Source: Myxococcota bacterium (lineage in GTDB: Bacteria > Myxococcota > XYA12-FULL-58-9 > JALHOP01). From it: a stretch of DNA of 64,000 nucleotides. The notes beneath the pieces are model-generated. The model searched no databases, was not told the origin of the DNA, and saw nothing but the letters and a program-made list of their open reading frames with translations. Position numbers and translations under genes: made by a program. The stretch spans positions 146-64,145 of the forward strand of contig JBGGMJ010000112.1 of assembly GCA_041288095.1 (NCBI GenBank), given 5' to 3'. This document shows, piece by piece, positions 3,429 to 44,165 of the stretch. The first letter of the stretch is position 1, and every line of letters starts with the position of its first letter.

Positions 3429-4016
3429 ATGAGCATCAACCTGCCCAGCGTGAGCGCTTTCCCCGTTCGTCTTTCCAACGGTCAGATCGCTCCCGCCCAA
3501 CGTCCCACGACCACCGCTACCGAGCTCCTCGCCTTCGCGCCCCGCATGCAGAAGGCCCGCGCGGTCGACGCCGCCGATCGCATCTCGAAGCCCATCGGCC
3601 ATGGTCAGGTTCGCGCCGAGTATCTTCGCCTGCGCGAGCTGGCCGCGAGCACGAAGCCCGAGTATCAGGTCGGTGGCCTGCTCAACGGCAAGCGCTATCC
3701 CAACGGCGTCGAGCTCTTGTGGAAGCTCAGCGACAAGCCGGGCGAGTGGGAAGTCATCCGCATCTATCGCGAAGCCAGCAAAGGCGAGGAAGCGTTCGAC
3801 GTCACCTTCCATCGCGGCACGCACATGATCCCCGACACCGACATCGTTCGCCGCTTCATCGGCCATGAGCGCATCTGGCGCGCCGACAGCGTCGACGCCG
3901 CGACCGGGGAGCACCTCGAGCGCCAAGGTCAGGACGAGCTGTACCTCTCACCCGAAGAGTGGAAGGTGCTGCGTGACTGGAAGGTGGCGCAGGACGCCAC
4001 CCGAGCCACTCGCTAG
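3429..4016 (+). CDS. hypothetical protein
   Basis: 195-aa ORF preceded by an AGGAG Shine-Dalgarno about 8 nt upstream of the ATG. Non-repetitive composition. No recognisable motif. Confidence 0.5.
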   Translation: MSINLPSVSAFPVRLSNGQIAPAQRPTTTATELLAFAPRMQKARAVDAADRISKPIGHGQVRAEYLRLRELAASTKPEYQVGGLLNGKRYPNGVELLWKLSDKPGEWEVIRIYREASKGEEAFDVTFHRGTHMIPDTDIVRRFIGHERIWRADSVDAATGEHLERQGQDELYLSPEEWKVLRDWKVAQDATRATR

Positions 4017-5176
4017 TACAAACAGTTGTTGATGCCGCGCGAGGCGTCGTAGGCGCACTCGCCACCGTAGAATGCGCAGGGCAAGGCGAAGAGCTCGCCG
4101 CTCTCGCACCAGGTCACGGTGCCGGCGTCGTCGCAGACGCCCTTGTAGGTGATGCCACCGCACGGATCGTTGACCGGCGGTTGCGTCTCCGCGCAGCCGT
4201 AGTACCCCTCGACCGAGGAGAAGACGCAGGTCTTGTTACGGACGGTGCAGTCCACCTGATAGAGCTGATTGTTCTCGCACCAGAGGACGGTGTTCGCGGT
4301 GCACTTGCCGACGAAGGTGACGCTGCCGCAGGGCGCGCCCGGCGTTGGATCGGGATCGGGCGTGGGGTCGGGTGTCGGATCCGGAGTCGGATCCGGAGTC
4401 GGGTCCGGCGTCGGAGTCGGCGTGGTCGACGGCGCGGTACCGGTGGCGCCGAGGAACGAGAGATACGCCGGCACCATGGTGTCGACGCCGTACTGCGTGC
4501 AGTAGGTGTCGCCGTACGAGGTCGTACCCGCGAGCAGGTAGTTGCCGGCCGGGTCGATGAAGAAAGCAGGGCCACCCGAGTCACCGTTGCAGGTGTTCTT
4601 GCCCGCGGTCTCGTAGGCGAACTGCGTCGAGCCGACCTCGGAGATGGGCATGATGACCGAGCGCTTCACACCGTTACCACTCTGGCGCTGCCCGTCATCG
4701 ATGCCGTAGCCGACGAAGGTGAGGTTCGCGCCGAGCCAGGTGCTGTCGAGGTTGTTCAAGATCTTGAGCGGCGTCTCGGTCGCGTCTTGATCGAGCGTCA
4801 CGTAGGCGATGTCGCCAACGAGCGTGTCGCGATTCCAAGCGGGGCTCTTGGCGCCGCCGGTGACGTTGTAGACCTTGCTCGGCGAGCCCGCGTTCGGACC
4901 GATCGCGAACTTGTACTGCGTCGGCGAGTAGTCATCGAGGCAGTGCGCGGCGGTGACGACCTTGCGCGGAGCAATCAAGGTGCCGGTGCACCAGTTGCTG
5001 CCGTTGATGGTCAGCGAGCCGACACCGGGGAGCCCCGCGAAGGCAGCACCGCCGATGATGCGATCTTGAGCAACGCTGCCCTCGATCACCGGTGTGTTGG
5101 GCGGCACGTCGGCGCCACCGCATGCGAAGACCAAACCGAAGACGCCGAGTAAGGACCATCGAAGCATCGTCGCCAT
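4013..5176 (-). CDS. secreted trypsin-like (S1) serine protease with PT-rich linker and two C-terminal 6-Cys modules
   Basis: IIGG mature-like N-terminus, TAAHC (His) and GDSGGP (Ser) motifs. Signal peptide MATMLRWSLLGVFGLVFACGG, so I chose the internal ATG at 5176 rather than 5224. Linker is TPTPTPDPTPDPTPDPTPDPTPDPDPTP. Confidence 0.85.
   Translation of the reverse strand: MATMLRWSLLGVFGLVFACGGADVPPNTPVIEGSVAQDRIIGGAAFAGLPGVGSLTINGSNWCTGTLIAPRKVVTAAHCLDDYSPTQYKFAIGPNAGSPSKVYNVTGGAKSPAWNRDTLVGDIAYVTLDQDATETPLKILNNLDSTWLGANLTFVGYGIDDGQRQSGNGVKRSVIMPISEVGSTQFAYETAGKNTCNGDSGGPAFFIDPAGNYLLAGTTSYGDTYCTQYGVDTMVPAYLSFLGATGTAPSTTPTPTPDPTPDPTPDPTPDPTPDPDPTPGAPCGSVTFVGKCTANTVLWCENNQLYQVDCTVRNKTCVFSSVEGYYGCAETQPPVNDPCGGITYKGVCDDAGTVTWCESGELFALPCAFYGGECAYDASRGINNCLY
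4338..4425. repeat. tandem 12-nt repeat encoding the (PDPT)n linker of the protease
   Basis: GTCGGATCCGGA occurs at 4374-4385 and again perfectly at 4386-4397. Degenerate copies GTCGGGTCCGGC (4398-4409) and GTCGGAGTCGGC (4410-4421) follow, and more degenerate copies lie upstream. Confidence 0.8.
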
Positions 5177-5339
5177 CGCACCCCTCACGTCGAGAGCAGG
5201 CGGCTCAGGCTGCGCGAAACGCAACTCGAACCGTTATCTGCGTTATCGGGTGAGGGGCCGAGATGTTGCTGAATTGTCAGGCGTTTTCGCGGTGGGCGGC
5301 TGCCAGGCTGTCAGCCGGGGCGGATGGGCCTCAAACCGC

Positions 5340-6434
5340 CTAATAGCTGCAGTTGTTGATGCCGCGGGTACCGTCGTAGGCGCAGTCCCCGCCGTTGGCG
5401 GCGCAGTCGATCTGCTTCACGGCGTTGGCCTCACACCAGATGACGGTGTCGCCACTGCAACGGCCCTTGTAGGTCTCGCCGTTGCACGGGTCGGTCGTGG
5501 TCGACGAGCGCGCAAGGCACCCGGTGAACCCGTCGAGCTGCGAGAAGCCGCAGGTCTTGCTGCGCAGCGCGCAATCGACTTCGTAGATGCGGTCGTCTTC
5601 ACACCAGGTCACGACGGTGCCGCTGCAGCGACCTTCGAAGGTCTCGCCACCGCATGGGTCGACCGGCTCCGGCGGCGGCGCGCTGTTGGGCGCGGTGCCC
5701 GCGACGCCGATCCACGCGAGGTACGCGGGGATGATGGTGTCGACGCCGTACTGCGTGCAGTAGGTGTCGCCGTACGAGGTCACGCCGGCGAGCAGGAAGG
5801 TGCCCTGCTGATCGACGAAAAACGCCGGGCCGCCCGAGTCGCCGCTGCAGGTGTTCTTACCGGCGGTCTCATAGGCAAACTGACTCGAGCCGATCTCAGA
5901 AATGGGCATGCTGACCGCGCGCTTGACGCCCATGCCGCTCTGTCGCTGACCGTTGTCCACGCCATAGCCCACGAAAAAGAGCTCGGCGCCGAGCCACGTG
6001 GAGTCGAGATTGTCGAGGACCTTGAGAGGCGTTTCGGTAGCCGTGGTCGAGAGGGTCACGACCGCGACGTCGTTGAGCACGGTCGAGAGGTTGAAGCCGG
6101 AATGCACGCGGATGCTCGCGACCGAGTAGACCTTGTCGGGGGCGTTGGCGTTCGAGCCGGTGACGAAGCGCCATGAGGAGGGCGTGGCGTTGCTGTGGAA
6201 ACAGTGCGCCGCGGTGACTACGCGGCGGTTGTCGATGAGGGTGCCGGTGCAGTGCGGGGCGCCGTTGCGCAACAAGGAGCCGACGCCGGGTGCGCCGCTG
6301 AAGGCCGCGCCGCCAACGATGCGATCCTCGGAGACGCTCCCCTCGAGGTCCAGCGTGCCGGGGGGCTCGCTACCCGCGCAGGCAAGGGCGGCGGTCAGCA
6401 GGGAAAGGCTTCCCCAGCGGAGGGATGGCGACAT
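5340..6434 (-). CDS. secreted trypsin-like (S1) serine protease, paralog of 4013-5176, with two C-terminal 6-Cys modules
   Basis: IVGG, TAAHC and GDSGGP motifs. Signal peptide MSPSLRWGSLSLLTAALACAG, so the start is taken at the ATG at 6434 (the ORF track starts at 6461). Shares a 48-nt identical tract with the paralog. Confidence 0.85.
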   Translation of the reverse strand: MSPSLRWGSLSLLTAALACAGSEPPGTLDLEGSVSEDRIVGGAAFSGAPGVGSLLRNGAPHCTGTLIDNRRVVTAAHCFHSNATPSSWRFVTGSNANAPDKVYSVASIRVHSGFNLSTVLNDVAVVTLSTTATETPLKVLDNLDSTWLGAELFFVGYGVDNGQRQSGMGVKRAVSMPISEIGSSQFAYETAGKNTCSGDSGGPAFFVDQQGTFLLAGVTSYGDTYCTQYGVDTIIPAYLAWIGVAGTAPNSAPPPEPVDPCGGETFEGRCSGTVVTWCEDDRIYEVDCALRSKTCGFSQLDGFTGCLARSSTTTDPCNGETYKGRCSGDTVIWCEANAVKQIDCAANGGDCAYDGTRGINNCSY

Positions 6435-6473
6435 CGGACGAACATACACGTTCGCCCACATCCGCGGCTCGGA

Positions 6474-7586
<1,113 letters not shown>

Positions 7587-7693
7587 GGAGATCCGAAGTG
7601 TACCGCCCTCAGGATGCGAATCTCAAGCGCCGTTGCCAAGCCGTCACTCATTTAGGGGAACGTGGCCGCGCAAGCGCCCGATAAGGCGAGACT

Positions 7694-8467
7694 GTGAGGA
7701 TTCGCGGCGAAAAATGGTCCGAGGCGGCCGACTCCATCAGAGCCGCTAGAGCAAAGGCCGAGCAGGCCGCGCCCGCCCCCACGAGCCGCGTCGGTCACAT
7801 CGCCCTGCAAGCTCTGGGCGCCACCGCCGTTGCCGCCGAAGTCACCGCCGCAGGTTTCCTCGCGCACGCCGCCGCGAGCCAGATCGCAACACCAGCCCAA
7901 GCCGCGATTGCCGGCGCCACCTTCGCGCTCGGTTATCTCGGTCTCGAGGCCCTTTGGGGTGCCGGCCATGCGTTCCTCGATCAGGCACGGCCGAGCGCCT
8001 TTCCCCGAATCCGGGAGGTTCTGCTCGCCTCGCAACGCCATCACCTGACTCCAGCCGACGTCACCGTAGCCGGCCCCTTCGACTACATGGCGCCGGTCGC
8101 GCTGCTCCTCACGCCCATCGTGGGCGCGCTCGCCTATCTCGACCCGACGTACTGGGCGAGCACGGCCGCCCTCGGGTTCGCGCTCGGCGCCACCATCACG
8201 CTCGACGTGCACCGCTACACCCACCTGCCGGCGCACAAGATGCCCGCGCTGCTCAAGCTGACCAGCCGCTTGGGTCTCACCCAGAAGCGCGATTCGCATT
8301 GGGTGCATCACCGCGACGACGACAAGAACGTCTGCCAGCTCACCGACTACGTTAACCCACTCTACAACAAGCTTGGGGTGTACGAACGCATCGGCAACGC
8401 CTTGCGGCGCCGGGGCGTGCACGTCGAGCAAACCGGCGTTCTAGCGCCCTGCGGCACCGCCGGCTAA
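7694..8467 (+). CDS. CarF/TMEM189-type membrane fatty-acid (plasmanylethanolamine-type) desaturase homolog
   Basis: His-box pattern and C-terminal block HRYTHLPAHKMPALLKLTSRLGLTQKRDSHWVHHRDDDKNVCQLTDYVNPLYNKLGVYERIG parallel the TMEM189/CarF lipid-desaturase domain (HxxxH ... HxxHH ... C..T...N.L). Several hydrophobic helices lie upstream. The GTG start is uncertain. Confidence 0.65.
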   Translation: MRIRGEKWSEAADSIRAARAKAEQAAPAPTSRVGHIALQALGATAVAAEVTAAGFLAHAAASQIATPAQAAIAGATFALGYLGLEALWGAGHAFLDQARPSAFPRIREVLLASQRHHLTPADVTVAGPFDYMAPVALLLTPIVGALAYLDPTYWASTAALGFALGATITLDVHRYTHLPAHKMPALLKLTSRLGLTQKRDSHWVHHRDDDKNVCQLTDYVNPLYNKLGVYERIGNALRRRGVHVEQTGVLAPCGTAG

Positions 8468-8476
8468 CATTGCCCC

Positions 8477-10093
8477 GTGGTGCGTCGTCGGCTTCTGACC
8501 AGCGCGGCATTGCTGATCGCCGTGAGCTGTCTACGTGCGAACGTGGACCTCGAGCATCGCTCCTGCGACGAAGGCGATTGCGCGAACGGGTACGCGTGCA
8601 ATCCGTTGACCAGCGAATGTGCGCCGCAGCTCAGCATCGGTTGCGACGGTAGCGGCGTGTGCCCGCTCGATCTGCGCGACGGTGATGCCTGCGAGCACGT
8701 CGGCAGCTTCGTGCCCTGCGTCAGCGGCACGACCGGCTGCGAGAGCGGCTGCCGCTTGTGCGACGACGAAAACACCTGGAGCGAGTGCAGCTGCACGGGC
8801 GTGGGCTGCGACTGCGTCCGCTCGAACGGTGGCGTCGAGGTCTGCGACGGCTTCGACAATGACTGCCGTGGCGGACGCGACGACGGCGTCGACGTGGAGG
8901 GTTGTCTTCCCTCGTGGATCGATGGGGACGGCGACGGTTTCGGCGTCGGCGCCTCCGCCTGCTACTGCGGTCTCGCGCCGGGCCGCGCCACGCTGGGTGG
9001 AGACACCGACGACGGGAATCCCAACGTCAACCCAGACACCAACGAGGTTTGCGACGGACGCGACAGCGACGGCGACGGGATGATCTCGCCGCGCGAATTC
9101 GACTACGACGGAGACGGCTACGTGGAGTGCGAGCCGTGGGTCGGCGACACCGTGGGCGTCGCGGGCGGCGGCGACTGTAACGACTTCGACGACGGCATCT
9201 TTCCAGGAGCACCCGAGCTTTGTGACGGCGTGGAGAACGCCTGCACCGGTCTGTCACCCGGAGAGACGGACCTCGACGGCGATGGCTACGTCGCCTGCGT
9301 CGGATGGAGCGGCATCACGCCTGGGGTGGTCGCTGGTGGAGACTGCGCTCCCGGAGACCCCAACCGCAGCCCCGGCCGGCTCGAGATATACGACGGCCTG
9401 GACAACGACTGCGACGCGAAAGCCGACGAGTGCCTCGTCGATTGCGACTGCGATGGCGGATTGGTGTCGTGTTACCAGCTCGAAAGCTTGCCCTCCGTCG
9501 GCGACGAGGGTCCCGCCGGCGTCGGCTTCCAGGTGAACAACGGCAGCGGCAGCATTGCACCCGGCATCGACGGCAACGGCTATCTGTTCGACGGCAGCTA
9601 CGTGCTGGAGGCGAGCGACAACACGGCGCACGACCTCACGCGCTTCAGTGTGTCCGCGTGGCTCCGCATCGACTCGGAACCCGGGGGCGGCGGCCAGCGC
9701 CGTTTCGTCTGGGACGTCCAGAGCCAGTATTCGATGTGGCAGGAGGACCACGGCGACCTCGTGTGCGCTTTCGCGAACAGCTCTAGCGTCATCGAGGCAG
9801 TGGCCGGTGGCGCCTTGGACGTGGGCGCGCTGGTACACGTCGCCTGCACCTACGACGGGTCCGCCCTGCGCGTCTACGTGGGCGGCGACCTCGTCAAGTC
9901 GCAGAACACGACGACGACTCCGCGCACGGACTACTCGGGCAAGTTTCACATCGGCTCGAACAGCCCCGACGCGACGAGCTCCGAGCCCGAGCACCTGATC
10001 GGACTCGTCGACCACCTCAAGGTCTACGACCAAGCGCTCGGTTCCATCCGTATGTGCGTCGAGGCACGCCGCACGGACTGCGAGTCGCTGTAG
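8477..10093 (+). CDS. lipoprotein with MopE-like Cys/Asp-rich repeats and a C-terminal LamG (concanavalin-like) domain
   Basis: Leader MVRRRLLTSAALLIAVSC. Repeated CDGxDNDC / DxDGDGYVxC / GGDCND motifs. The C-terminal roughly 190 aa are LamG_3-like (SVSAWLRIDSEP...LRVYVGGDLV...HLIGLVDHLKVYDQAL). Confidence 0.75.
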   Translation: MVRRRLLTSAALLIAVSCLRANVDLEHRSCDEGDCANGYACNPLTSECAPQLSIGCDGSGVCPLDLRDGDACEHVGSFVPCVSGTTGCESGCRLCDDENTWSECSCTGVGCDCVRSNGGVEVCDGFDNDCRGGRDDGVDVEGCLPSWIDGDGDGFGVGASACYCGLAPGRATLGGDTDDGNPNVNPDTNEVCDGRDSDGDGMISPREFDYDGDGYVECEPWVGDTVGVAGGGDCNDFDDGIFPGAPELCDGVENACTGLSPGETDLDGDGYVACVGWSGITPGVVAGGDCAPGDPNRSPGRLEIYDGLDNDCDAKADECLVDCDCDGGLVSCYQLESLPSVGDEGPAGVGFQVNNGSGSIAPGIDGNGYLFDGSYVLEASDNTAHDLTRFSVSAWLRIDSEPGGGGQRRFVWDVQSQYSMWQEDHGDLVCAFANSSSVIEAVAGGALDVGALVHVACTYDGSALRVYVGGDLVKSQNTTTTPRTDYSGKFHIGSNSPDATSSEPEHLIGLVDHLKVYDQALGSIRMCVEARRTDCESL

Positions 10094-10158
10094 CGAACCA
10101 CGATGGGCGCCAACCACCGCCCCTGGCGCCGGAGCGCCCCGTTCGCTACCACTATGGG

Positions 10159-11733
10159 GTGGTACGTCGTCCCCTATTGGCCAGCGCCTTGCTCGTCGCC
10201 GTGAGTTGCCTGCGCGTCAATGTCGACCTCGACCATCGCTCGTGCACCGCCGGCGACTGCGCCGACGGCTACGTCTGTAACCCTCTGACCAGCGAATGCA
10301 CGCCTCCGGTCGATCTCGACCCCACCAGCGTGGCCGACGGAGACACCTGCGAGCTCGCGGGTAGCTTCCTGCCTTGCGTCGCCGGCACCAGCGGTTGCGA
10401 AAGCGGCTGCCGCATCTGCAATCCTGACGAGACCTGGAGCGAGTGCAGCTGCACCGGCCTGAACTGCGCTTGCTTTCCGACCAACCGGGGCGAGGAGATC
10501 TGCGACGGCTTCGACAACGACTGCAACGGCCAGATCGACGGTGAAGGCACGCTGGGGTGCACCCCCTCGTGGGTCGACGCCGACGACGACGGCTTTGGCG
10601 TAGGTAGCCCTATCTGCATTTGCGGACTACCCGAGGGGCGTGCGGCGCTACCTGGCGATCCCGACGACACCAATCCCAACGTCAACCCCGATCAAGGTGA
10701 AGTCTGCGACGGCGTAGACAACAACGGCGACGGCATCGTCGCGCGCGAAGTCGACAACGACGGTGACGGCTACGTCGAGTGCGCGCCGTGGGTGGGCACG
10801 ACGGCCGGCGTGATCGGCGGCGGCGACTGCAACGATACCAATCCCACCGTTCGCCCCGGGGTGCCCGAGGTCTGCGACGGCATCGAGAATGCCTGCCTCG
10901 GCTTGCCCAGCGACGAGACCGACAAGGACGGCGACGGCTTCGTCATCTGCCAGCCGTACGTCGGCACGCCGGGGGTGATCTTGGGCGGCGGCGATTGCGA
11001 CCCCTCACGTCCCGACGTCTTCCCGGGGGCGGCCGAGGTCTACGACGACGTCGACAACGACTGCGACGGCAAGAACAACGAGTGTCTCGTCGACTGCGAT
11101 TGCGGCGACACGTTGGTCTCGTGTTACCGGCTCGACACCCTGCCGATCGCTGTCGACGAGGGCAAAGCCGGCGTCCACGGCGACATCGAGGTCGGCAGCG
11201 GCTCGCTGGCGGCAGCGGTCGTCGGCATGGGCTACGCCATGAACACGAGCTACTACGTCGAGGGCGACAGCAGCCCAGCGCACGACATACGACGCTTCTC
11301 GCTCAGCGCCTGGGTGAACCCGCTGAGTGAGCCCACCGCCGCCTCCGCCGCGCGCTTCATCGTCGACGTCCAGAGTCAGTACGGCCTCTGGCACGCGAAG
11401 GGCGGCGAGCTCGGCTGCTTCTTCGTCGCCGCCGACGGCAACTTCATCGCCACCACCGCCTCGGGGGTTCTAGCGACCAACACGTTTTCGCACGTGGGCT
11501 GCAGCTACGGCGGCAGCAGCTTGCGGCTCTATGTCGGCGGCAGCCTCGTCGCGTCACGGAGCGCCAGCGGCAACGTCTACACCGACGATTCGGACAAGCT
11601 GCGCATCGGCTCGAACAGCCCCAGCGGCGACGCCTTCATCGGCATCCTCGACCACTTGAAGATCTTCGACGTCGGCATCAGCGAAGGCCGCATGTGCGCC
11701 GAAGCGCGGCAGCTCGATTGCAGTCCGTTTTAG
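10159..11733 (+). CDS. lipoprotein with MopE-like Cys/Asp-rich repeats and a C-terminal LamG domain (tandem paralog)
   Basis: Collinear with 8477-10093 over its whole length. I placed the start at the GTG at 10159 (GTG GTA CGT CGT = MVRR), matching the paralog leader MVRRPLLASALLVAVSC. The track start at 10054 would overlap the upstream gene. Confidence 0.75.
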   Translation: MVRRPLLASALLVAVSCLRVNVDLDHRSCTAGDCADGYVCNPLTSECTPPVDLDPTSVADGDTCELAGSFLPCVAGTSGCESGCRICNPDETWSECSCTGLNCACFPTNRGEEICDGFDNDCNGQIDGEGTLGCTPSWVDADDDGFGVGSPICICGLPEGRAALPGDPDDTNPNVNPDQGEVCDGVDNNGDGIVAREVDNDGDGYVECAPWVGTTAGVIGGGDCNDTNPTVRPGVPEVCDGIENACLGLPSDETDKDGDGFVICQPYVGTPGVILGGGDCDPSRPDVFPGAAEVYDDVDNDCDGKNNECLVDCDCGDTLVSCYRLDTLPIAVDEGKAGVHGDIEVGSGSLAAAVVGMGYAMNTSYYVEGDSSPAHDIRRFSLSAWVNPLSEPTAASAARFIVDVQSQYGLWHAKGGELGCFFVAADGNFIATTASGVLATNTFSHVGCSYGGSSLRLYVGGSLVASRSASGNVYTDDSDKLRIGSNSPSGDAFIGILDHLKIFDVGISEGRMCAEARQLDCSPF

Positions 11734-11891
11734 CGAACACAGCCCTCCGGAGTTGAGCACCACCAACCCCGGCACCAGCGCACGCTAGCCGTTACACACA
11801 CTCTGTAGGCGCTTGGGAGGTGGTGGAGGTGGTGGTTTTCGCCGCTAGAGCGGACGGCTCGACCGTAGTGTCTCGATGAAGGAGCAATGGA

Positions 11892-13763
11892 ATGCGCAAA
11901 CACTCCCCCATCGTCGTCGTCACCCTCGTGCTTGCTGTGGCTTGCAGCGACAAGAAGTCGGGCAGCGACGTTCTGAGCGCACGCATCGTCGAGCCAAACG
12001 GCATAGCGACGATTCTCAGGGGCACCGCGTTTGATCTCCGCGCGACCTTTGCCGACGGCCCCAACGCCGTAACGCCCGACAGTGTGAGCTGGCGGTCATC
12101 GGAGACTGACGATCAGCTTCCCCAGACCAATCCGGCGCACAACGTCGTGTTGACCCCGGGCGTCCGCGCCATCAGCGTGACTGGAAAGCTCGCGGGCAAG
12201 GAAGGCTCTGATCAGGTCGAGATCACCGTCGGCGACATCGGCGTCGCGATCGCGCGGCCCACGAACCGACGCCAGGTCGCTCCCGGTCAGACGGTGGCTC
12301 TGCAGGGCGAAGGTCAGGCCTACAGCGGCGTGAACCAAATCCAGCTCAACCCAGTGAACGCGGTGTTCGCATGGACGGCCGACGGCGTGGCCTTTGGCGG
12401 CAATCAGAACCAGCTGCAGAGCCCAATGACGTTGACGGTAGGCGAGCACACAATCGAGCTCACCATCACCTACTCCGATCCCGCGACAACGACGGTGTTC
12501 AGTGGCAGCGCCCGGATCACCTTGGTCGTGAACACCGCTCCAGCGGTCAGCATCACCGCGCCCAATTGCCCGATCGATCTGCCGGCCGGGTCCCCGCAAA
12601 CGTTCGTCGGTATCGCCAGCGACGCCGAGGACGGACCGCTCACGGGGAGCTGGGTCGACCTGCTGACCGGCGAGGACACCAGCGGCGACACCTGGGTATT
12701 CGCGAGCGACGTGATCGGCAAACACGAGCTCGAGTACTCCGCCGCTGACTCGACGGACCACATTGCCCGCGACACGTGCGGTGTACGCGTCTACCCCGTG
12801 GGCGAGAGCGCGGCGGCACTCTTCCCGAGCGCGGCGGCGGTGAGCAGCGCCATGCCCAATGACAACATCGAGGTGGTCTACCTCGACGGCAGCGGCAACC
12901 TGCTCGCCGGCAGCCACGGACAGCTCGCGGTGTTCGACACGGCGCTTGCGCTGATCAACGACGGCTCCGGATCGTCGAACCCCTACGATGGTACCGAGCT
13001 CGGCGTCGGCGGCGGCTCGACGGTGCGAGACGTGATCATCGTGGGAACAAAGCTTCTCGCCGCGACCGCCGACGGCCTCGCGCAATGCGACTACAGCGCT
13101 GGCAACCTGAGCGCCTGCACCGACATTGGCGACGGCCAGGACTTCAACGGCGTCGCATTCGCCTCCGACACTCCGCTTGGGGGGGTCCTTGCCTCCTCCG
13201 CCGTCGACGGCTTGTTCGTCGCGACCTACTCCGCCGGCAGCATCACGGCGTCGCATTTCTACGATCGTGACGTGTTGACGACGCGAGACGACATCCGCGA
13301 CGTGCTCTTCGTTGGCGGCGCTTTGTACGTGGCAACAGATTCAGGAGTTTGTGTCCTCAACGACCCCGCGGCGGCGGCGGCGGTGATTGCGACTACGCTG
13401 TGCGACGACGTCATCGCCGTGAACGACGCGCGCAGTCTATCGCACCGCAATGGCGTCCTGTGGATCGGCACCGACAACGGCCTGGTGCGCCGCGACCTTT
13501 CGAGCGGCGGCGCTGTAACGTTCGACCGCGATGCCGGACTGCCAAGCGACAACATCAACGACGTCGTCGTCGCGCCCGATGGCATCGTCTGGGTAGCCAC
13601 CGACAGCGGCGTTGGCCGACTCGATCCCGAGACCGGTCACGTCGTGACGCTGAGCCCACCCGATTGGAACGGCTCGGCTCAGGTGAACAGCATCCTCATC
13701 GCACCGGACGGCAGCAAGTGGTTCGGTACGGACGAAGGCGTGGTGCACTACGTTGGTGCTTGA
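11892..13763 (+). CDS. lipoprotein with Ig-like N-terminal domains and a C-terminal Reg_prop-type beta-propeller
   Basis: Leader MRKHSPIVVVTLVLAVAC with an AGGAG-like SD upstream. C-terminal repeats NGVLWIGTDNGLVRRD, DGIVWVATDSGVGRLD and DGSKWFGTDEGVVHY resemble two-component-regulator propeller repeats. Confidence 0.7.
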   Translation: MRKHSPIVVVTLVLAVACSDKKSGSDVLSARIVEPNGIATILRGTAFDLRATFADGPNAVTPDSVSWRSSETDDQLPQTNPAHNVVLTPGVRAISVTGKLAGKEGSDQVEITVGDIGVAIARPTNRRQVAPGQTVALQGEGQAYSGVNQIQLNPVNAVFAWTADGVAFGGNQNQLQSPMTLTVGEHTIELTITYSDPATTTVFSGSARITLVVNTAPAVSITAPNCPIDLPAGSPQTFVGIASDAEDGPLTGSWVDLLTGEDTSGDTWVFASDVIGKHELEYSAADSTDHIARDTCGVRVYPVGESAAALFPSAAAVSSAMPNDNIEVVYLDGSGNLLAGSHGQLAVFDTALALINDGSGSSNPYDGTELGVGGGSTVRDVIIVGTKLLAATADGLAQCDYSAGNLSACTDIGDGQDFNGVAFASDTPLGGVLASSAVDGLFVATYSAGSITASHFYDRDVLTTRDDIRDVLFVGGALYVATDSGVCVLNDPAAAAAVIATTLCDDVIAVNDARSLSHRNGVLWIGTDNGLVRRDLSSGGAVTFDRDAGLPSDNINDVVVAPDGIVWVATDSGVGRLDPETGHVVTLSPPDWNGSAQVNSILIAPDGSKWFGTDEGVVHYVGA

Positions 13764-14474: not shown

Positions 14475-16505
<2,031 letters not shown>

Positions 16506-16618
16506 GGGGTGCAATCCTTCGAGCGGGTGCGTGCGGTTAACGGGTCCGACACATGGTTACACAGTGGCCCAAGACACTCAACTTGCACTCGGGCTGTGGA
16601 GAGAGCAAGTAACCCCGG

Positions 16619-19370: not shown

Positions 19371-22300
19371 ATGGACAAGCTGCAAAACTACGTCAACCTG
19401 CCCATGGGCAGCGCTGACAATCCGAGCGGTGATCCGATGCTGCGCGATCTGCGCATGCGCATCGACACCTGGGCAGCGAACCCGGCGCCGTCGCAGGCGG
19501 AGACGCGCGCGGTCGCGACCCACCTCGAGAACCACATCAAAAGTGGCGACCCGAACAAGAAAGACGACCGCAAGCGCGGCGTCAAAGAGCAGCTGATCAA
19601 GGTGAGCGACAAGCACCTCGAGGATTTGCTGTCGGTGCTGCCAAAGCCACCGCGTGAAAGCCCGCTACGCGACATCGTCGACACGATCTTGGCGGAGCGC
19701 GAGAGCGCGCGCGCCGAGGAAAAACAGCACCTCAGGTTGGTACAGGCGAACAACGACGAGCTGCGCCCTGACCGAGGCGGCGCGGCGCGGGGCCCACGGA
19801 GCGACCCAGCGCCGGGCGCCTCGCCGTCTGATCCCCGCAGCGTCCAGACGGATGCGCCACAGGCGCCGACCGACCCGGCCTTCGGCAAACGCGCTCAGGA
19901 ACGAGCCGGCAAGATGGAGGATGTCCTCCGCCCGTTTGGCGAGAACAAGGGCTTCTCGACGCAGACCATCGTCGAGCTCGAAGTGATCATCGAGTCCGCT
20001 AACACGGACGGAGCGTGGGCGCGTGGCCAAGCCTTCACCGCGGCCGGCAAGGCGCTCGAGAAGCTCGACATCTACAAGCTAAGGGCCCTCCTGCTCGTCG
20101 TGAACAATGGCGAGCTGAGAGATCTCATTCGCGACCTGATGAACGCGAAGGGCGGCGTCACCAGTGGCGCCCACGGTACGGCGGTTCTCGGCGGCGAAGG
20201 TGTCGAAAGGGGCGAGGCGACTCACTTCTTCGAAGTCACCCCCAAACAGATCGCCGACCGCGCCAAAGCGGTCCTCGAGCGCGCCAACAAGGGCGCGGCG
20301 TTGCGCGACGGGTTCTACGGCCTCGCCAAGGCGGACCAGGTGGCGCTCGAGAGACAGATCGGCCAGCTGCTGCTCGAGCAGGCAAAGAGCGGCGGCCCGG
20401 CGTCGAAGAGCTCGCCCGAACAGCTCTTCCAGGCGCTGCTTGGCCGCCTCACCGAACGTGACCGCAAGCTCTACGAAGCACTGCGCAGCAATGACAACAG
20501 CCGCTTTGCCGTCGAAGACGAGATCTACGCCTCGGTGAAAGGCATGGGCACGTACATGCCCGGCCTCATCGACGCCTTCAGGAAGCGCACGGCGGCGCAG
20601 CGCGCCCAAATCGAAGGCCGCTATTACAACCGCTATGGCGAACGCCTCGACGATCGCCTGTATGACGAGACCAGCGACACGTTCACCCTCACCGAAGACT
20701 ATGCGCAGGTGGCGCTGCTTCGCCGGCAGCAGAAACCGGGCGACGGCGAGCTCGCCTTCCGCATCTGGCAGGCGAGTCAGAGTGCCGACGCCACCGGTTT
20801 GTTCACGGCGTTCGAAGAGGCCGTCGAGAGCGGACGCTTCGCGCACATCGAAGCGCTGTTTGCAGAGGCCGTTCCCGGCCGCGAGCTCATCCGCGACGTG
20901 ATGGACAGCCTCCGCCGCTCCGGCCAAGGCTCGTCGCGCGACTGGTACGCGCGCATGGACGCGCTCCTCAAGGGAAAATACGACCACTACCTCGCGCTCA
21001 CCGCCAAGCTGGTCGCCGAGCGCGGACACCCGCCCGCCGAGCTGGTCCGCGTCTTCGAGCGTTACAAAGGCAAGGTGACGCCCGAACAGCTGCGGGCGGC
21101 CTATACGGCGGAGGGCGGCAAGGGCGATCTCGTCGCCGAGGTCACCAAGCGCGATGCGGCGCTCGCCATCCTCTTTTCGGACAAGGCGGACGGTCCGCCC
21201 CAGGGCGGCGACCTCGCGAGCCTGGCGATGGCGTTGCGGGACACGCTCGAGAGTAGCTCCGAGCGCGGCCCGCGCGTATCGGCGCTGCTCGCCAAGGTAA
21301 AGCCGGAGCAGCGCGACGCCTTTCTCAGGACCTTCGAGACCATGCACGGCCAGTCCGTCGAGCAGGCCATCGCCAAGGCCTTCCCGCCCTCGAAGACCGG
21401 CAAATCGCAGCCCTGGCGTGACCGTCTCGTCTTCGAAGCCGCCGGCGGCAAACATTCACTAGTCGGTTTGCTCGGGTGGGTGCGTCCGGGCTTTGGTACG
21501 CCGAGCGAACTTCTGTCCGCTTTAGCGGCGGCGGCGCCGGACGAGCGTCGCACCTTACGCTCCGACTTCGACAAGCGCCACCGCCGCGGCGACTTCGATC
21601 TCTGGATGGCCGGCCTCGAGCCGCGCATACGCCGTGCCGTTCAGATGCAGCTCGGCATGACCCCCGAAGAGATCGAGAAGCTCTGGTTCAGCCAGCGCCG
21701 CGAAACCGGTTGGGCCGGTGCCTCGCGCTTCATGATGGACACCTTCGGCTTCAGCGGTGTTTTCCTCGACACGGCGGTCCACGACTTTTTCATCGAGTCC
21801 GAGCGCATCACCCGCCGCATCGAGCGCGACGGCGAGGTGTCAGCCGACGATCTGCGCACCTATCTCGCGGCACACGCTGCGATGCTCGAGCGCTTCGCGG
21901 CCTACGACCGCGAGAAGGCCGACGTCGCGGACACGGTGAGCGGCGCCGCGGCCACGATCGCGGGCATCACAGTCGCCATTGCCAGCGGCGGCTCGCTGTC
22001 TCCCCTCGTCTTGCTGGCAAGCGCGGCGACCACGGGCGTCGTCGCCTCGACCGCGACCGGCCTCGTCATGGGTAGCGACGCGACCTTCGCCCAGCTCGTC
22101 GAGACCGGGTTCAAGGCGGGTGCCGTCGACGCGATCTTTCAGGGCGGCACGGCGGTGATGATCAAAATCGCCGGCCGCACGGTCAAGCTCGTCGGAGGCC
22201 CAGGACCGACCGCCAGGATTGCACCGCCTCCTGGGGCGCCACGTGAGCTCCCCATGGTTCACGGTGTCCCTCAGAGCGGCGGCGCGATGTCGCCTTCGAC

Positions 22301-31112: not shown

Positions 31113-31834
31113 GGTCGTGTCCCCCGTGGCGAGCGCGCAGCCGCTTTGCTCGCGATATCGGCACGCTGCGACAACGACGGCGCGCCCTTGAAGTCACCAA
31201 AGATAGCGCCGAGCATTTCTTGCGCGGTGATCTGGAAGCGGTCCACGAAGTGATATCGCTTGTTCAAGTCGACGAAGAGTAGCTCGATGAGCCCGTAGAG
31301 CGTGTCGAGCACACCTTCGCCGCGAACCGCAACCGCGGGATACACCGGCTCGCGTCCTTTTCGCGCGACCTCCGTCAGCTCGTCGATGCTACGGGCGCTC
31401 GGCAGGTCACGCTTGTTGAACTGAATGACCACCGGGATGCTGTCGGCGTCGAGGCCGTTCTCGGTGAGGAAACGCCGCATGCCCCGCCAGAACTCGTTGT
31501 TGTTCTGCGACTCGCTGCGCTGACTGTCGGCGACGAAGACCACGGCGTCGGCTCCGGAAAGCACGAGGCGCCGAGTCGCGGCGTGGATCACCTGGCCCGG
31601 CACCGTGAAGAGCTTGAGCTTGAGACGATAGCCGGAGCGTGTGTTCATCGTCACCGGCAGCACGTCGAAGAAGAGGGTGCGATCGTTGGCGGTGTCGAGG
31701 GTCGTGAGCCGGCCACACGCATCCGGCTTCAGGGCGCGATGCAATGCTTGCAGGTTCGATGTCTTACCGCTCAGCGGAGGGCCGTAATAAACGACCTTGA
31801 GCACGATCTCGCGCTGGCCAGTGTTGAATTGCAC
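31109..31834 (-). CDS. MglA-like Ras-superfamily small GTPase
   Basis: Collinear with MglA. P-loop VVYYGPPLSGKTSNLQ, switch region RTLFFDVLP, TVPGQV, VVFVADSQ, and NKRD specificity motif (QFNKRDLP). Carries a roughly 50-aa C-terminal extension. Confidence 0.8.
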   Translation of the reverse strand: MQFNTGQREIVLKVVYYGPPLSGKTSNLQALHRALKPDACGRLTTLDTANDRTLFFDVLPVTMNTRSGYRLKLKLFTVPGQVIHAATRRLVLSGADAVVFVADSQRSESQNNNEFWRGMRRFLTENGLDADSIPVVIQFNKRDLPSARSIDELTEVARKGREPVYPAVAVRGEGVLDTLYGLIELLFVDLNKRYHFVDRFQITAQEMLGAIFGDFKGAPSLSQRADIASKAAARSPRGTRP

Positions 31835-33448: not shown

Positions 33449-36127
33449 TTGCGGGCCATGCCGTCGCCCGCCCGGGTTTCCGTCCAATTTCTGCTCATCT
33501 CCGCGCTCGGCCTGAGCTACGCCGCTGGGTGCGGTTCCGAACCGTCCAAGGGGCAGCAGGACGAGGACACGGCCGATACCGACGACCTCGGCGGGGATGT
33601 CGACGATGGCGACGAGGACCTAGGGGACGGCGATGGCACGGTCGCTGGCGACGATCCTCCTCCGCCCCCTCCCCCGCCTCCACCCGCTCCAATCACGAAT
33701 GCGGGGAACGCGGCACGAACCGGTTGGTACGCGAACCAGCCCGGGCTGAATCCGGCCATCGTCGCCGGCACCACGTTCGGCAGACGATTCACCGTCGACC
33801 TCCCGGGCGGCCCGCTCGATCAGGTGTACGCCCAGCCGCTGGTGTTCGACGGGCGCGTCTTCGTCGTCACCGAGCTCAACAACGTCTATGCGCTGGATGC
33901 CGAGACCGGCGCGATCCTCGAATCGGCGAACCTCGGTGATCCCTGGGACACGGCCGATCTCGCGCCGGCTTGCCCTGACCTCGTCCCCAACATCGGCATC
34001 ACCGGCACTCCAGTGATCGACGCCGTCAATGCCGTCGCCTATCTGCTATCGAAGACATACGACGAGCCGAGTGGCGAGCCCGTCTACCTCGCGCACGCTC
34101 TCGACACCACGACACTCCTGGAGAAGCCGGGCTTCCCCATCGAAATCCAAGGCGTCGCCGATAACGACCCGAACGTTTCCTTCGCCCCGCTGTTGCATCT
34201 GCAGCGGCCGGGACTCTTGCTGCTCGATGGTGTCGTCTACGCCGCCTTCGGCGGGCAGTGCGATGTTGGCTTCTATAGCGGATGGGTCGTGGGCTTCACC
34301 CCGGAAGGCGTGGTCACCGCCATGTTCGCCGCGGAGACCGGCCCCGATTCCCTGCGCGGGTCGGGCATCTGGCAATCGGGCTCGGGTCTCATGGCCGACG
34401 ACGACGGGCGCATCTTCTTCGTGACCGGCAACAGCTTCTCGACGGCGGCTCGCTTGCCGACTCCGGGCGCGACGCCGCCGGGATCGCTCGGCCAAGCCAT
34501 GGTGCGTCTGCGGGTCGAGCCCAACCGCACGCTCGCGGCCGACGATTTCTTCATCCCGTACAACGTCCGCGCCCTCGACGATAACGACGTCGACTTCGGC
34601 TCCGGCGGTCCAGTGGCGCTGCCCGATGACGTCTTCGGCACCGACGCACACCCGCGTCTCGCCATCGCGGTTGGCAAGGTCGGGATCCTCTACGTCTTCG
34701 ATCGCGACGACTTGGGCGGTCACAAGCAGGGCGCGAACGGCGACGATGCCGTGCTCGGGCGCGTGAACCTCATCGGCGGCGCCTGGTCACGACCGGCGAT
34801 CTGGCCTGGCGACGGCGGGCTCGCGTACTTCGTGCTCAACAACGCGCGCATCCAAGTGATGCAATATGCGGTCGACGGCGCCGGCAACCCGTCATTCGCC
34901 AACATCGGCCAAGGTGAGACCGAGCTCGGTTACACCTCGGGGTCGCCCATCGTCACCTCGGACGGCACGACGTCCGGTACGGCACTCGTCTGGACAGTGG
35001 CAACCACCGGCGCCTTCGGCAACGGCGAGCTGCGCGCCTATGACGCGGTCCCCGACGAGGCGGGCGTCGTGCACCAGCGTTACGCCGACAGCTTTGGCGC
35101 CGCCACCAAGTTCTTCTCGCCGGGTGTCGGCGACGGTCGCCTGTATGTCGGCACGCGCGACGGCCGCGTCATCGCATACGGCGCGCCGGCCACCTCACCC
35201 GTCACGGTCGCCGCCACCGACTTCGGCACCGTCGTGGTCGGCAACACGGTGACCCGCACTGTGACGATCAGCGCCAACCAAGCGTTGTTGCTCGAGAGCA
35301 TCACCATCATCGACCCGGCGTTCACCGTCGACGTAAGTGCGCTCGCCTTGCCGGTCACCATGGCCGCCGGCGAAGAGATAAGCGTCGACGTCACCTTCGA
35401 GCCCGACGATTCCGGCCTCTTCTTGGCGACGCTCGATATCGGCACGTCGGTCGGCGACGCTTCCGCATCACTCCGCGGTAGCGGACAGACGGCCGGCCCG
35501 AAGCTCGTGCTCTCGTCGCCGTTCGTAAGCTTCGGCGGCGTCACCACCAACGACACCTTCACGGTCAACGTCATCGCCAAGAACGTCGGGGCGCAAGTGT
35601 TGATCTTCAGCGGCTCGACCGACCCGGCGTCGCCGTTCTTCACGCAGAATGTCCCCGCCGCCGCGAGCACGCTGGCGTCCGGAGCGTCGGTGACCTTCAC
35701 CATCGGCTTTCACCCCACGACGGCCGGCGCCTACGACGGCACGTTCACGCTCGCGAGCAACGGCGGTAGCGACAGCATCGGCATGAGCGGCACCGCGGCC
35801 GCGCCCGGTCACATGGTGATCACACCCATGACCGTCGACTTCGGCGACGTCGCCGTGGGCGACGAGGAGACCCAGTCGTTCACCGTCGCCAATGACGGTG
35901 GGACGTACATCGTCATCGCCAAATCGAAGCCGCCGATCACCGCCGGCTTCAGCGCCGTGAGCAGCCTCGATGAAGGCACCCGCATCAATCCCGGCGCCTC
36001 GCGCACCATCAACGTGAAGTTCGCGCCGGTTACAGTGAGCGCCGGCGCCGAGGCTTTCTGGACGATCACCGCGACGGACGGCCAAGGCGTGCAGAACGTC
36101 CGGCTCACCGGCAACGGCGTGCCCTAA
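33449..36127 (+). CDS. secreted lipoprotein with a PQQ-like beta-propeller followed by repeated choice-of-anchor-D/Ig-like domains
   Basis: Leader ...LISALGLSYAAGC, an acidic stretch, ten consecutive Pro codons, and PQQ-type repeats (NNVYALDAETGAIL). Four C-terminal roughly 100-aa repeats of the pattern DFG.V.VG...T..VT..N.G. Confidence 0.7.
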   Translation: MRAMPSPARVSVQFLLISALGLSYAAGCGSEPSKGQQDEDTADTDDLGGDVDDGDEDLGDGDGTVAGDDPPPPPPPPPPAPITNAGNAARTGWYANQPGLNPAIVAGTTFGRRFTVDLPGGPLDQVYAQPLVFDGRVFVVTELNNVYALDAETGAILESANLGDPWDTADLAPACPDLVPNIGITGTPVIDAVNAVAYLLSKTYDEPSGEPVYLAHALDTTTLLEKPGFPIEIQGVADNDPNVSFAPLLHLQRPGLLLLDGVVYAAFGGQCDVGFYSGWVVGFTPEGVVTAMFAAETGPDSLRGSGIWQSGSGLMADDDGRIFFVTGNSFSTAARLPTPGATPPGSLGQAMVRLRVEPNRTLAADDFFIPYNVRALDDNDVDFGSGGPVALPDDVFGTDAHPRLAIAVGKVGILYVFDRDDLGGHKQGANGDDAVLGRVNLIGGAWSRPAIWPGDGGLAYFVLNNARIQVMQYAVDGAGNPSFANIGQGETELGYTSGSPIVTSDGTTSGTALVWTVATTGAFGNGELRAYDAVPDEAGVVHQRYADSFGAATKFFSPGVGDGRLYVGTRDGRVIAYGAPATSPVTVAATDFGTVVVGNTVTRTVTISANQALLLESITIIDPAFTVDVSALALPVTMAAGEEISVDVTFEPDDSGLFLATLDIGTSVGDASASLRGSGQTAGPKLVLSSPFVSFGGVTTNDTFTVNVIAKNVGAQVLIFSGSTDPASPFFTQNVPAAASTLASGASVTFTIGFHPTTAGAYDGTFTLASNGGSDSIGMSGTAAAPGHMVITPMTVDFGDVAVGDEETQSFTVANDGGTYIVIAKSKPPITAGFSAVSSLDEGTRINPGASRTINVKFAPVTVSAGAEAFWTITATDGQGVQNVRLTGNGVP

Positions 36128-37425: not shown

Positions 37426-38295
37426 CTACGGCCACTTCCTGCGAACCGTTACCACGAGGTTGTCCTCGACCCACCGCTTGGCGTCGGCCGCGCTCAGCCC
37501 CGGCCCGACGGGGCCTGGCGTTCGCAGGGCATCGAGCGTGCACTGCTTGATGCTCCGTCGCCACGCGGTTGGCAGCCGCTTGTCGAAGATCCACTCGAGA
37601 GCGCGGCCGGGCGGCACCGGATGAATCGACACGCCTTCCTTCTGATAGCGCCCGAAGTGACGAAAGGTTTGGTAGCACAGCTTGTTGGCGCCGAGCTCAC
37701 GCTCCGTCCCATGCCAGCTCTTGAACTCCTGATCGGCCTCACGAGCGCCGTCGCGTCTCCTCGCGTCTCGGAACTTGAGGTGGTCGCGGCCCGCTCCCCC
37801 AACCGCCGGCTCGATCTCGATGAGGCTATTGGGGAGGTTCTTCGCGGACTCGTGAATGGCGAACGCCGCGCCACGAGAAGGGTCCTTCGGATACACCGCG
37901 AACTCACGGGCAAGTCCCTCCAAGCGCTCGGTGGCGACGGGATCGCCGGCGAACTGCCGGGATAACTTCGCGTAGTCCGCAAGGGCTGCCTTCGCGGCGT
38001 CTGGGCCCAGCTCCTCGTCCAGGTTCGTGATCGCCTTGCCCAATCGCTTCAACGCCTCGTCGTTGCCGTGCTGCTTGCCGACGGTCGCGAGCATGCGCAG
38101 GAGACCTTCCTGCGCGTCCGGGTCGTTCTTGACGATCGCGGAGATGCGCGGGTTGGTGAAATGCGACTTGACCTGGTTGAAGAACGAAACACGCCCAGGC
38201 GACGACCCGGGCTTGATGCTCTTACGCTTGCCCGCTTCGGCGGACGACCCGACGAGCAGCACGGCAACCAGTAGAGCAATGATGGGCAGCTTCAT
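37426..38295 (-). CDS. secreted hypothetical protein (290 aa)
   Basis: Signal peptide MKLPIIALLVAVLLVGSSAEA. The ATG at 38295 overlaps the stop of the giant gene (ATGA at 38292-38295). No recognisable domain. Confidence 0.6.
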   Translation of the reverse strand: MKLPIIALLVAVLLVGSSAEAGKRKSIKPGSSPGRVSFFNQVKSHFTNPRISAIVKNDPDAQEGLLRMLATVGKQHGNDEALKRLGKAITNLDEELGPDAAKAALADYAKLSRQFAGDPVATERLEGLAREFAVYPKDPSRGAAFAIHESAKNLPNSLIEIEPAVGGAGRDHLKFRDARRRDGAREADQEFKSWHGTERELGANKLCYQTFRHFGRYQKEGVSIHPVPPGRALEWIFDKRLPTAWRRSIKQCTLDALRTPGPVGPGLSAADAKRWVEDNLVVTVRRKWP

Positions 38296-44057: not shown

Positions 44058-44165
44058 GCGCTGTGCCCACTTTCCGCTGCGATTTCCGAAATACCCCAAC
44101 AGGGAGGGTCGGGACGAGGACCAATGGACGTCCGGCTCGCGGCGCGATACAGACGCAGCTGCCAC

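Follow-up and report, generated by a model that had tools for sequence, protein, structure and literature searches.

A degenerate annexin array in a large Myxococcota protein with a hydrophobic hairpin module and a C-terminal domain resembling clan CD cysteine proteases

We analyzed a stretch of 64,000 nucleotides from a Myxococcota bacterium (assembly GCA_041288095.1, contig JBGGMJ010000112.1, positions 146 to 64,145; hereafter, the window), and focused on one gene that encodes a protein of 1326 amino acids. A first-pass annotation, made from the sequence alone, had proposed that this protein contains a canonical annexin calcium-site signature and several annexin-like repeats. The region turned out to be a genuine bacterial-lineage annexin array with five repeats, and possibly six. 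One repeat (R1) is well preserved, and four or five are degenerate (R2 to R5 and possibly R0). The array is followed by a module with a hydrophobic hairpin (module B) and by a C-terminal domain that, in its predicted fold, resembles clan CD cysteine proteases (module C). We favor the view, with a probability of about 0.6, of a modular effector or toxin in which the array serves as the constant scaffold for membrane binding and the C-terminal enzymatic domain is swappable. The protein is identical to the NCBI entry 'MAG: hypothetical protein ACAI38_13010 [Myxococcota bacterium]', the record of which already bears a precomputed match to the annexin family PF00191.

The Pfam Annexin family (PF00191) matched R1 at amino acids 382-438 with 33.8 bits (E 3.6e-8, whole protein), and with 38.2 bits when the fragment alone was used. 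The curated gathering score of the family is 25 bits, so that the objection that annexin hidden Markov models might score below threshold does not hold. A phmmer search against the Protein Data Bank (PDB) returned annexins throughout (XII, VI, A8, A4, and others), with a best E value of 1.4e-9. In these alignments, the K-G-M-G-T loop of R1 (aa 390-394, DNA 20538-20552) overlies the K-G-I-G-T loop of the PDB annexins, and E433 (DNA 20667-20669), located 39 residues after the Thr, pairs with the canonical Glu of 'SELSG' in annexin XII. The first-pass annotation had thus counted correctly (T394, D432 at +38, E433 at +39), and its signature of K-G-x-G-T followed by an acidic residue was confirmed, as G391-M-G-T394 and E433 align with the canonical type II Ca2+ site. 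The residue after GxGT is a Tyr instead of the usual Asp. The helix C pattern Q-R-x-x-I-x-x-x-Y, which had also been pointed out, is common to R1 and eukaryotic annexins. Because the Pfam score was above threshold and PDB annexins were matched at about 1e-9, the motif is real and not a product of chance.

The other repeats required an indirect approach. R1 was the sole repeat that was detected directly by Pfam, and searches with seven sub-fragments against Pfam and with the whole protein against NCBIfam yielded this single annexin match and nothing else. Smith-Waterman comparisons of R1 with every downstream segment, evaluated with shuffled sequences, remained at noise level (z <1) and do not demonstrate internal repetition. 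Since Pfam recognized one stretch and the pairwise scores were noise, the repeat claim was tested with profiles. Relatives were collected by an exhaustive HMMER search over 1.84 billion cluster representatives, which yielded 65 proteins, about 10 of which align with aa 300-948. A profile of the family matched annexin VI in five stretches (E 5e-65). However, canonical members dominate that result, and therefore each repeat of the subfamily (the query and the relatives P0002 and P0003) was compared using hhalign with a profile of canonical repeats only. Flanking segments and reversed sequences served as controls, all of which gave P values of at least 0.018.

Direct comparison linked R1 (98%, 2e-13), R4 (84%, 8e-6, 58 columns in register), and R5 (70%, 4e-5) to the canonical repeats, and was not significant for R2 (P 0.017) and R3 (P 0.086). 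Transitive comparisons were then made via three intermediates (P0036, P0047, P0039). R2 matched the intermediates with 95% (3e-8), and these matched the canonical repeats with 98% (6e-13). The corresponding values were 96% and 99% for R4, and 97% and 93% for R5. R3 matched its own intermediates (92%, 8e-7), and those intermediates missed annexin (P 0.03). In addition, three relatives (P0059, P0061, P0064) contain five Pfam-recognized annexin repeats each (E 1e-52 to 1e-65). They are collinear with aa 383-938 of the query, and each of their canonical GxGT repeats faces one query segment. Taken together, annexin homology is nearly certain for R1, R2, R4, and R5. For R3, a divergent five-helix unit, and for R0 it is probable from their position and the structure model described below. 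R0 aligned in register with an annexin repeat over 38 columns (P 0.002, probability 14%), which is suggestive only of a sixth repeat.

The four peptides quoted in the first-pass annotation were all present at the places given for them in the reading frame, but its description of the repeats needed revision. The first peptide (DEIYAS...SDTF, aa 383-438, DNA 20517-20684) belongs to R1. The proposed downstream repeats were borne out by profile-profile comparison for the segments VSALLAKVKPEQ... (aa 636-671, DNA 21276-21383) in R4 and LLSALAAAAPDE... (aa 714-746, DNA 21510-21608) in R5, but not for VRVFERYKGK... (aa 559-591, DNA 21045-21143) in R3, which has no significant sequence link. R2, at aa ~453-535 between R1 and the latter segment, had been missed. 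The GxGT loops of R2 to R4 have all been lost (QSADAT in R2, SSSERG in R4). The last segment had been described as lacking the loop as well, but GFGT is found directly upstream of it (aa 707-710, DNA 21489-21500). This motif sits in the GxGT column of the canonical repeats, and thus the last repeat has the loop. Its acidic partner is displaced by two residues (E750, aligned position 748), and a type II Ca2+ site, i.e., a (K/R)-G-x-G-T loop and an acidic residue about 39 positions on, is complete by sequence in R1 only.

From an alignment of 11 sequences, aa 300-948 were modeled with AlphaFold2. The mean pLDDT was 70.5, with blocks mostly at 75-93 over aa 310-760. DSSP assigned exactly 25 helices to aa 381-762, in five sets of five, and five further helices were found in the R0 region. 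When the model was compared with the PDB using Foldseek, the first 34 matches were all annexins, with probabilities of 0.94-1.0 for most of them and about 330-410 aligned columns. Structure prediction had been suggested as a check that might speak against the annexin assignment, and the five times five helices and the annexins at the top of the match list speak for it. The predicted local fold of the repeats agrees with the five-helix annexin repeat. The pTM value was only 0.55, and the inter-repeat geometry is therefore unreliable; the four-repeat disc packing of eukaryotic annexins was not reproduced at that confidence.

The HMMER matches divide the protein into independent homology blocks. 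In most annexin-bearing relatives the array is followed by module B, which contains a Gly/Ala-rich hydrophobic hairpin (aa 857-900, DNA 21939-22070). This hairpin is only moderately hydrophobic (maximal Kyte-Doolittle value ~1.7) and rich in Gly, Ala, Ser, and Thr. The full layout of annexin array, module B, and module C was found in P0008, P0016, and P0034. Module C is replaced by HopA1 in P0047 and P0050 and by a weakly matching RelA/SpoT-like domain in P0046, and the other relatives with an array and module B have C-termini of no recognized family. The annexin-module B family is thus built of a constant scaffold and variable C-terminal cassettes, which is a criterion for polymorphic toxins. 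P0003, which is 37% identical over aa 301-757, contains the array without modules B and C. The named relatives were all derived from metagenome-assembled genomes (MAGs) of Myxococcota, 'Deltaproteobacteria', or Bdellovibrionales, and one entry was also labelled Clostridia. Almost all of the clusters are singletons, and the family is patchy. The N-terminal region (aa 1-292) had no family match and is not common even to the closest relatives, and no signal peptide was found in the protein. A word-indexed homologue search with the full protein returned only the protein itself. The same type of search with alignment A1 gave zero matches, probably owing to saturation by low-complexity words.

Module C has about 50 relatives and is usually located at the C-terminus of proteins of 400-2000 aa; it also ends many proteins of 1000-2000 aa that are devoid of annexins. 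Five residues are invariant in 25 module C sequences, namely D1118, H1164 (DNA 22860-22862), G1165, C1202 (DNA 22974-22976), and Q1204. The candidate catalytic residue C1202 is the only Cys of the whole protein. The motifs VFVFSG-H1164-G and IVLE-A1201-C1202 each follow a hydrophobic strand, and the strands are formed as expected in a model of the module (pLDDT 85, pTM 0.85). Clan CD proteases are characterized by the pattern 'His-Gly ... Ala-Cys', which these two motifs reproduce. In a Foldseek search with the model, ranks 1-8 were all cysteine protease domains (CPDs) of family C80, from Vibrio cholerae RtxA, TcdB, TcdA, and TcsH. The best match was 3fzy_B (E 1.5e-4, probability 1.0), and 9bja_B and 3ho6_B were also among them. 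As modeled, module C has a fold resembling that of clan CD cysteine proteases, among them the CPDs with which MARTX and the large clostridial toxins process themselves, and it may be an active protease. A C-terminal hydrophobic helix follows in 30 of the 51 module C carriers. Three elements of the protein are putatively membrane-interacting. The first-pass annotation had remarked that the repeats sit among other unusual parts; they are joined to a putative membrane hairpin and to a predicted cysteine protease fold of the toxin type. The positions of all features are compiled in Table 1.

Table 1. Features of the annexin gene and of the two open reading frames (ORFs) preceding it; nucleotide positions refer to the window
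Feature	Amino acids	Nucleotides	Strand	Basis or remarks
Whole gene	1326 aa	19371..23351	+	ORF list; same as NCBI record
N-terminal region	1-292	19371..20246	+	polar, Pro-rich; variable
Possible degenerate repeat R0	293-374	20247..20492	+	five helices in model; hhalign not significant
Annexin repeat R1	375-452	20493..20726	+	Pfam, phmmer, hhalign, model
Degenerate annexin repeat R2	453-535	20727..20975	+	transitive hhalign; five helices in model
Repeat-position R3	536-606	20976..21188	+	position and model; holds the VRVFERYKGK... segment
Degenerate annexin repeat R4	607-694	21189..21452	+	hhalign; holds the VSALLAKVKPEQ... segment
Annexin repeat R5	695-772	21453..21686	+	hhalign, alignment; holds the LLSALAAAAPDE... 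segment
Module B	775-945	21693..22205	+	conserved S..MDTFG.SG..D motif, long helices, hydrophobic hairpin
Module C	985-1300	22323..23270	+	helical subdomain and alpha/beta core, 'H-G...A-C' pattern
C-terminal hydrophobic helix	1303-1320	23277..23330	+	tail-anchor-like
Small upstream ORF	~70 aa	18636..18848	+	stop/start codons overlap
Small upstream ORF	~135 aa	18845..19252	+	directly upstream of annexin gene; stop/start codons overlap

The genomic neighbourhood was compared between the window and the loci of several relatives. In the window, the gene is surrounded by housekeeping genes (PrkA, ApbE, pirin, an amino acid permease, and an E1 dehydrogenase). The permease gene lies downstream, and an immunity-like gene is not found directly downstream in the window; this absence would be in keeping with a protease that has no activity in its producer. 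The gene downstream of P0034 is RadA/Lon-like, and P0050 alone has a small downstream ORF (87 aa). The closest relative, P0002, is encoded at a syntenic locus (L001), also with the amino acid permease downstream. The annexin proteins of the two loci are about 43% identical in the array and module B (modules A/B) only, and both of their ends differ. Conservation is much higher for the two small upstream ORFs than for the annexin gene: the 135-aa ORF is 83% identical to its counterpart at L001, and the 70-aa ORF is conserved there too. Neither of them had a Pfam or PADLOC match. They possibly encode a partner or chaperone, or are unrelated, and, being common only to the closest relative's locus, were left out of the system. 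At L001, a gene for a 2529-aa SpvB/RHS/TcdB_toxin_midN/YD-shell toxin (4561-12150, minus strand) is located between the annexin gene and the permease gene. The window lacks this toxin gene, and the site between annexin gene and permease may be a variable toxin hotspot.

Several other genes of the window deserve mention. Tandem genes for trypsin-family serine proteases (PF00089, E 1e-21 and 1e-25) are located at 4013-5224 and 5340-6461 on the minus strand. Tandem paralogues with MopE-type Cu-binding motifs and a Laminin_G_3 (ConA-like lectin) domain occupy 8477-10093 and 10054-11733 on the plus strand. A giant ORF of 3548 aa (46470-57116, minus) consists almost wholly of TPR repeats, and an ORF of 1957 aa (38292-44165, minus) matched only the middle domain of protein-arginine deiminase, weakly and below threshold (E 4e-5). 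Eukaryote-like domains other than annexin are present in this genome as well: an ORF with a weak match to Arf-family small GTPases (31109-31834, minus, E 6e-5) lies directly upstream of a gene for a PocR-domain histidine kinase (29613-31112, minus). A protein of 892 aa (33449-36127, plus) has ASH/HYDIN-type Ig-like domains (PF15780, PF22544), which are best known from eukaryotic ciliary proteins. The genes for DUF444 (YeaH-like; 6474-7586, minus) and PrkA (14475-16514, minus) are about 7 kb apart, an arrangement that differs from the usual prkA-yeaH-spoVR order.

For the function of the protein we propose the following sequence of events. The annexin array would dock the protein on an acidic-phospholipid membrane, with a Ca2+ dependence that is at best partial. 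The hairpin of module B and the C-terminal tail would then insert into the docked membrane, where the protease would cleave target proteins or process the protein itself. Such a protein would most likely be an effector or toxin that a predatory Myxococcota bacterium delivers. The exchange of C-terminal cassettes is consistent with this reading. So is the company of toxin genes, with the SpvB/RHS toxin gene near the orthologous locus and one relative inside a type III secretion system (T3SS) cluster, and so is the fast evolution of the annexin proteins (~43%) in comparison with the small ORFs (83%).

A number of observations weigh against this reading. Pfam and NCBIfam searches with aa 1-380 revealed no recognized trafficking domain (Photorhabdus virulence cassette (PVC) metallopeptidase, RHS, LXG, PAAR, etc.), most of the loci have housekeeping neighbours, and the 64 kb window contains no secretion system. 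An association with T3SS genes was seen at 1 of 6 distinct loci examined, the window included, and none are present within 10 kb of an orthologue of that relative (72% identical) in another Myxococcota MAG. The Ca2+-site motif of R1 has been lost in the two closest relatives (GWGAH in P0002, NLGNV in P0003), and thus Ca2+ binding may not be essential; this loss and the single complete site by sequence argue against a strict Ca2+ requirement. The structural comparisons also gave modest values, both for the array (best E 1.7e-3, TMt 0.32, rmsd ~12 A) and for module C (E 1.5e-4, TMt ~0.35), and none of the 25 module C sequences matched Pfam Peptidase_C80 at E values up to 1.

A serious rival is a membrane-anchored housekeeping role in the producer, which we regard as possible but somewhat doubtful. 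The hairpin and the tail would be embedded in the cell's own inner membrane, the array would bind to its own anionic lipids for remodelling, repair, or scaffolding, and the clan CD domain would serve regulated proteolysis. Three membrane-interacting elements, the absence of a signal peptide or secretion domain, the housekeeping neighbours, and the lack of an immunity gene would all fit such a role, and a cytosolic membrane-anchored topology was predicted for a Burkholderiales annexin in a survey of 2014 (PMC3894181). Against it stand the swapping of the C-terminal cassette with effector-type domains (HopA1 twice, RelA/SpoT-like), the fast divergence relative to adjoining genes, and the patchy family of singletons. 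Toxin and T3SS neighbours at two loci and the moderate hydrophobicity of the hairpin also disfavor it. Injection by a myxobacterial or bdellovibrio-type T3SS, after which the hairpin of an effector- or translocator-like substrate would insert into the target membrane, is less probable still, and should be viewed as a lead, not a finding. It stems from P0003, whose gene is surrounded by a non-flagellar T3SS cluster (L003 1-22019) in a MAG that bears the label Bdellovibrionales; L003 and L006 are the same contig, and these genes are also found on a second, shorter contig (L004). Genes for SctN, SctL, SctJ, and a needle-like SctF (weak match) are located on one side, and genes for YscO-like, SctQ, FliO, and FliP on the other. 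HopA1, a T3SS effector family, ends two relatives, and the polar disordered N-termini without Sec signal would also suit a substrate. However, the adjacency is not kept in the orthologue, T3SS genes are absent from the window and the other loci, and P0003 itself lacks modules B and C. A general linkage to T3SS was rejected, as the orthologue's locus and four further loci are devoid of such genes. P0003 is adjoined by two acidic paralogues of about 560 aa, which have hydrophobic regions. The genes flanking P0003 were considered as translocators or a chaperone, but were not convincing.

Recent horizontal acquisition of a eukaryotic annexin gene is very unlikely. R1 is about equally similar to metazoan annexins (E ~1e-9) and to bacterial repeats, but the GC content of the gene (0.65-0.67) is uniform with its flanks, without compositional anomaly. 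Moreover, the array is part of a bacterial family that has a conserved module B of its own and bacterial cassettes at the C-terminus, four of its five repeats have strongly diverged, and a related MAG shows synteny at this locus. Some defence systems contain caspase-like proteases, and anti-phage defence or abortive infection by a membrane-tethered caspase-like protease was also considered. A defence-island context is missing, and PADLOC yielded no match for the protein, module C, or the neighbours. At the sensitivity of the tools used, the defence explanation is essentially refuted, as is a chance annexin motif, which is excluded by the Pfam score, the PDB annexin matches, and the match of the family profile to annexin VI. 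Returning to the modular effector, a bolder version of it is speculative and rather unlikely. In this version, the array and the module B hairpin would form a self-inserting delivery scaffold of predatory Myxococcota and Bdellovibrionota that carries swappable warheads into prey or eukaryotic cells, possibly via T3SS, and module C would be an uncurated, host-activated, CPD-like family of clan CD proteases. If this were true, the existence of a host-activated module C family would suggest that free-living predators have toxins against eukaryotes.

The occurrence of annexins in a toxin-like protein of myxobacteria is not new, and each element of the protein has a precedent in two earlier studies. 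Kodavali et al. (2014) catalogued 34 bacterial annexin proteins, including Myxococcales proteins of two to five repeats with transmembrane (TM) segments and protease or toxin domains, and noted repeats 'diverged beyond recognition' (PMC3894181). Zhang et al. (2012) proposed that annexin domains in bacterial toxins help to breach target membranes ahead of the toxin domain at the C-terminus, and described caspase-like peptidases ('Tox-Caspase', clan CD, H/C) as releasing or C-terminal-most toxin domains (PMC3482391). In view of the roughly 34 bacterial annexins known in 2014 (PMC3894181) and the annexin toxins discussed in 2012 (PMC3482391), the emphasis of the first-pass annotation on rarity was overstated. 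The protein analyzed here shares with the 2014 set the phylum, two to five PF00191 repeats accompanied by further diverged ones (PMC3894181), partly conserved GxGT(D/E) loops, predicted TM segments, fusion to protease or toxin domains, and an uninformative neighbourhood. It differs in that only one repeat is directly detectable. The partners listed in that survey are DUF4157, Peptidase_M90, lipase, Colicin D/Pyocin_S, and Ntox3, with no clan CD CPD-like domain among them, and the survey does not treat the module B hairpin as a unit of its own (PMC3894181). In annexin toxins that are delivered by the PVC secretory system, the annexin is likewise a non-catalytic accessory upstream of a C-terminal enzymatic domain (PMC3482391), and variable C-terminal domains are combined with a constant scaffold. 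However, these toxins contain just one annexin domain, and their N-terminus is a PVC metallopeptidase (PMC3482391), whereas we found five or six repeats, no recognizable N-terminal trafficking domain, and no downstream immunity gene.

The five-helix repeat is shared with the core of eukaryotic annexins (XII 1aei, A5, VI), as are the K-G-x-G-T loop between helices A and B and the Glu at T+39 in R1. In contrast, eukaryotic annexins have four or eight repeats instead of five or six, and they contain neither TM segments nor an enzyme domain, whereas the present array is embedded in a protein of 1326 aa with both; one intact Ca2+ site remains here, and the disc packing is not reproduced in the model, the inter-repeat geometry of which is unreliable. 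Module C has in common with the Peptidase C80 CPDs of V. cholerae MARTX RtxA and Clostridioides difficile TcdA/TcdB the predicted fold, the His-Gly and Ala-Cys motifs after strands, an upstream invariant Asp, and the location within a large multi-module protein that includes a hydrophobic region for membrane insertion. Unlike these internal domains, it is C-terminal-most and tail-anchored and has an extra N-terminal helical subdomain. At the level of sequence profiles it matched neither Pfam C80 nor the CPDs of the PDB, and a module C profile found zero CPDs among the PDB sequences at E values up to 10. The novelty lies in the particular combination of five or six annexin repeats, module B, and a CPD-like module C with a tail anchor, and in the definition of modules B and C, both of which are uncurated.

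The protein is a well-dissected addition to the small set of bacterial annexins. It demonstrates the decay of an annexin array, in which one intact Ca2+ site is left next to four or five degenerate repeats that are traceable only via intermediates. Two uncurated modules travel with bacterial annexins, namely a hydrophobic-hairpin module and a CPD-like family of putative clan CD proteases with about 50 representatives at 50% clustering, mostly from 'Deltaproteobacteria' MAGs. The finding bears on the debate over a bacterial or a eukaryotic origin of annexins. Should the effector reading hold, the family would provide candidate payloads for the machinery with which predatory bacteria kill, and which is poorly understood.

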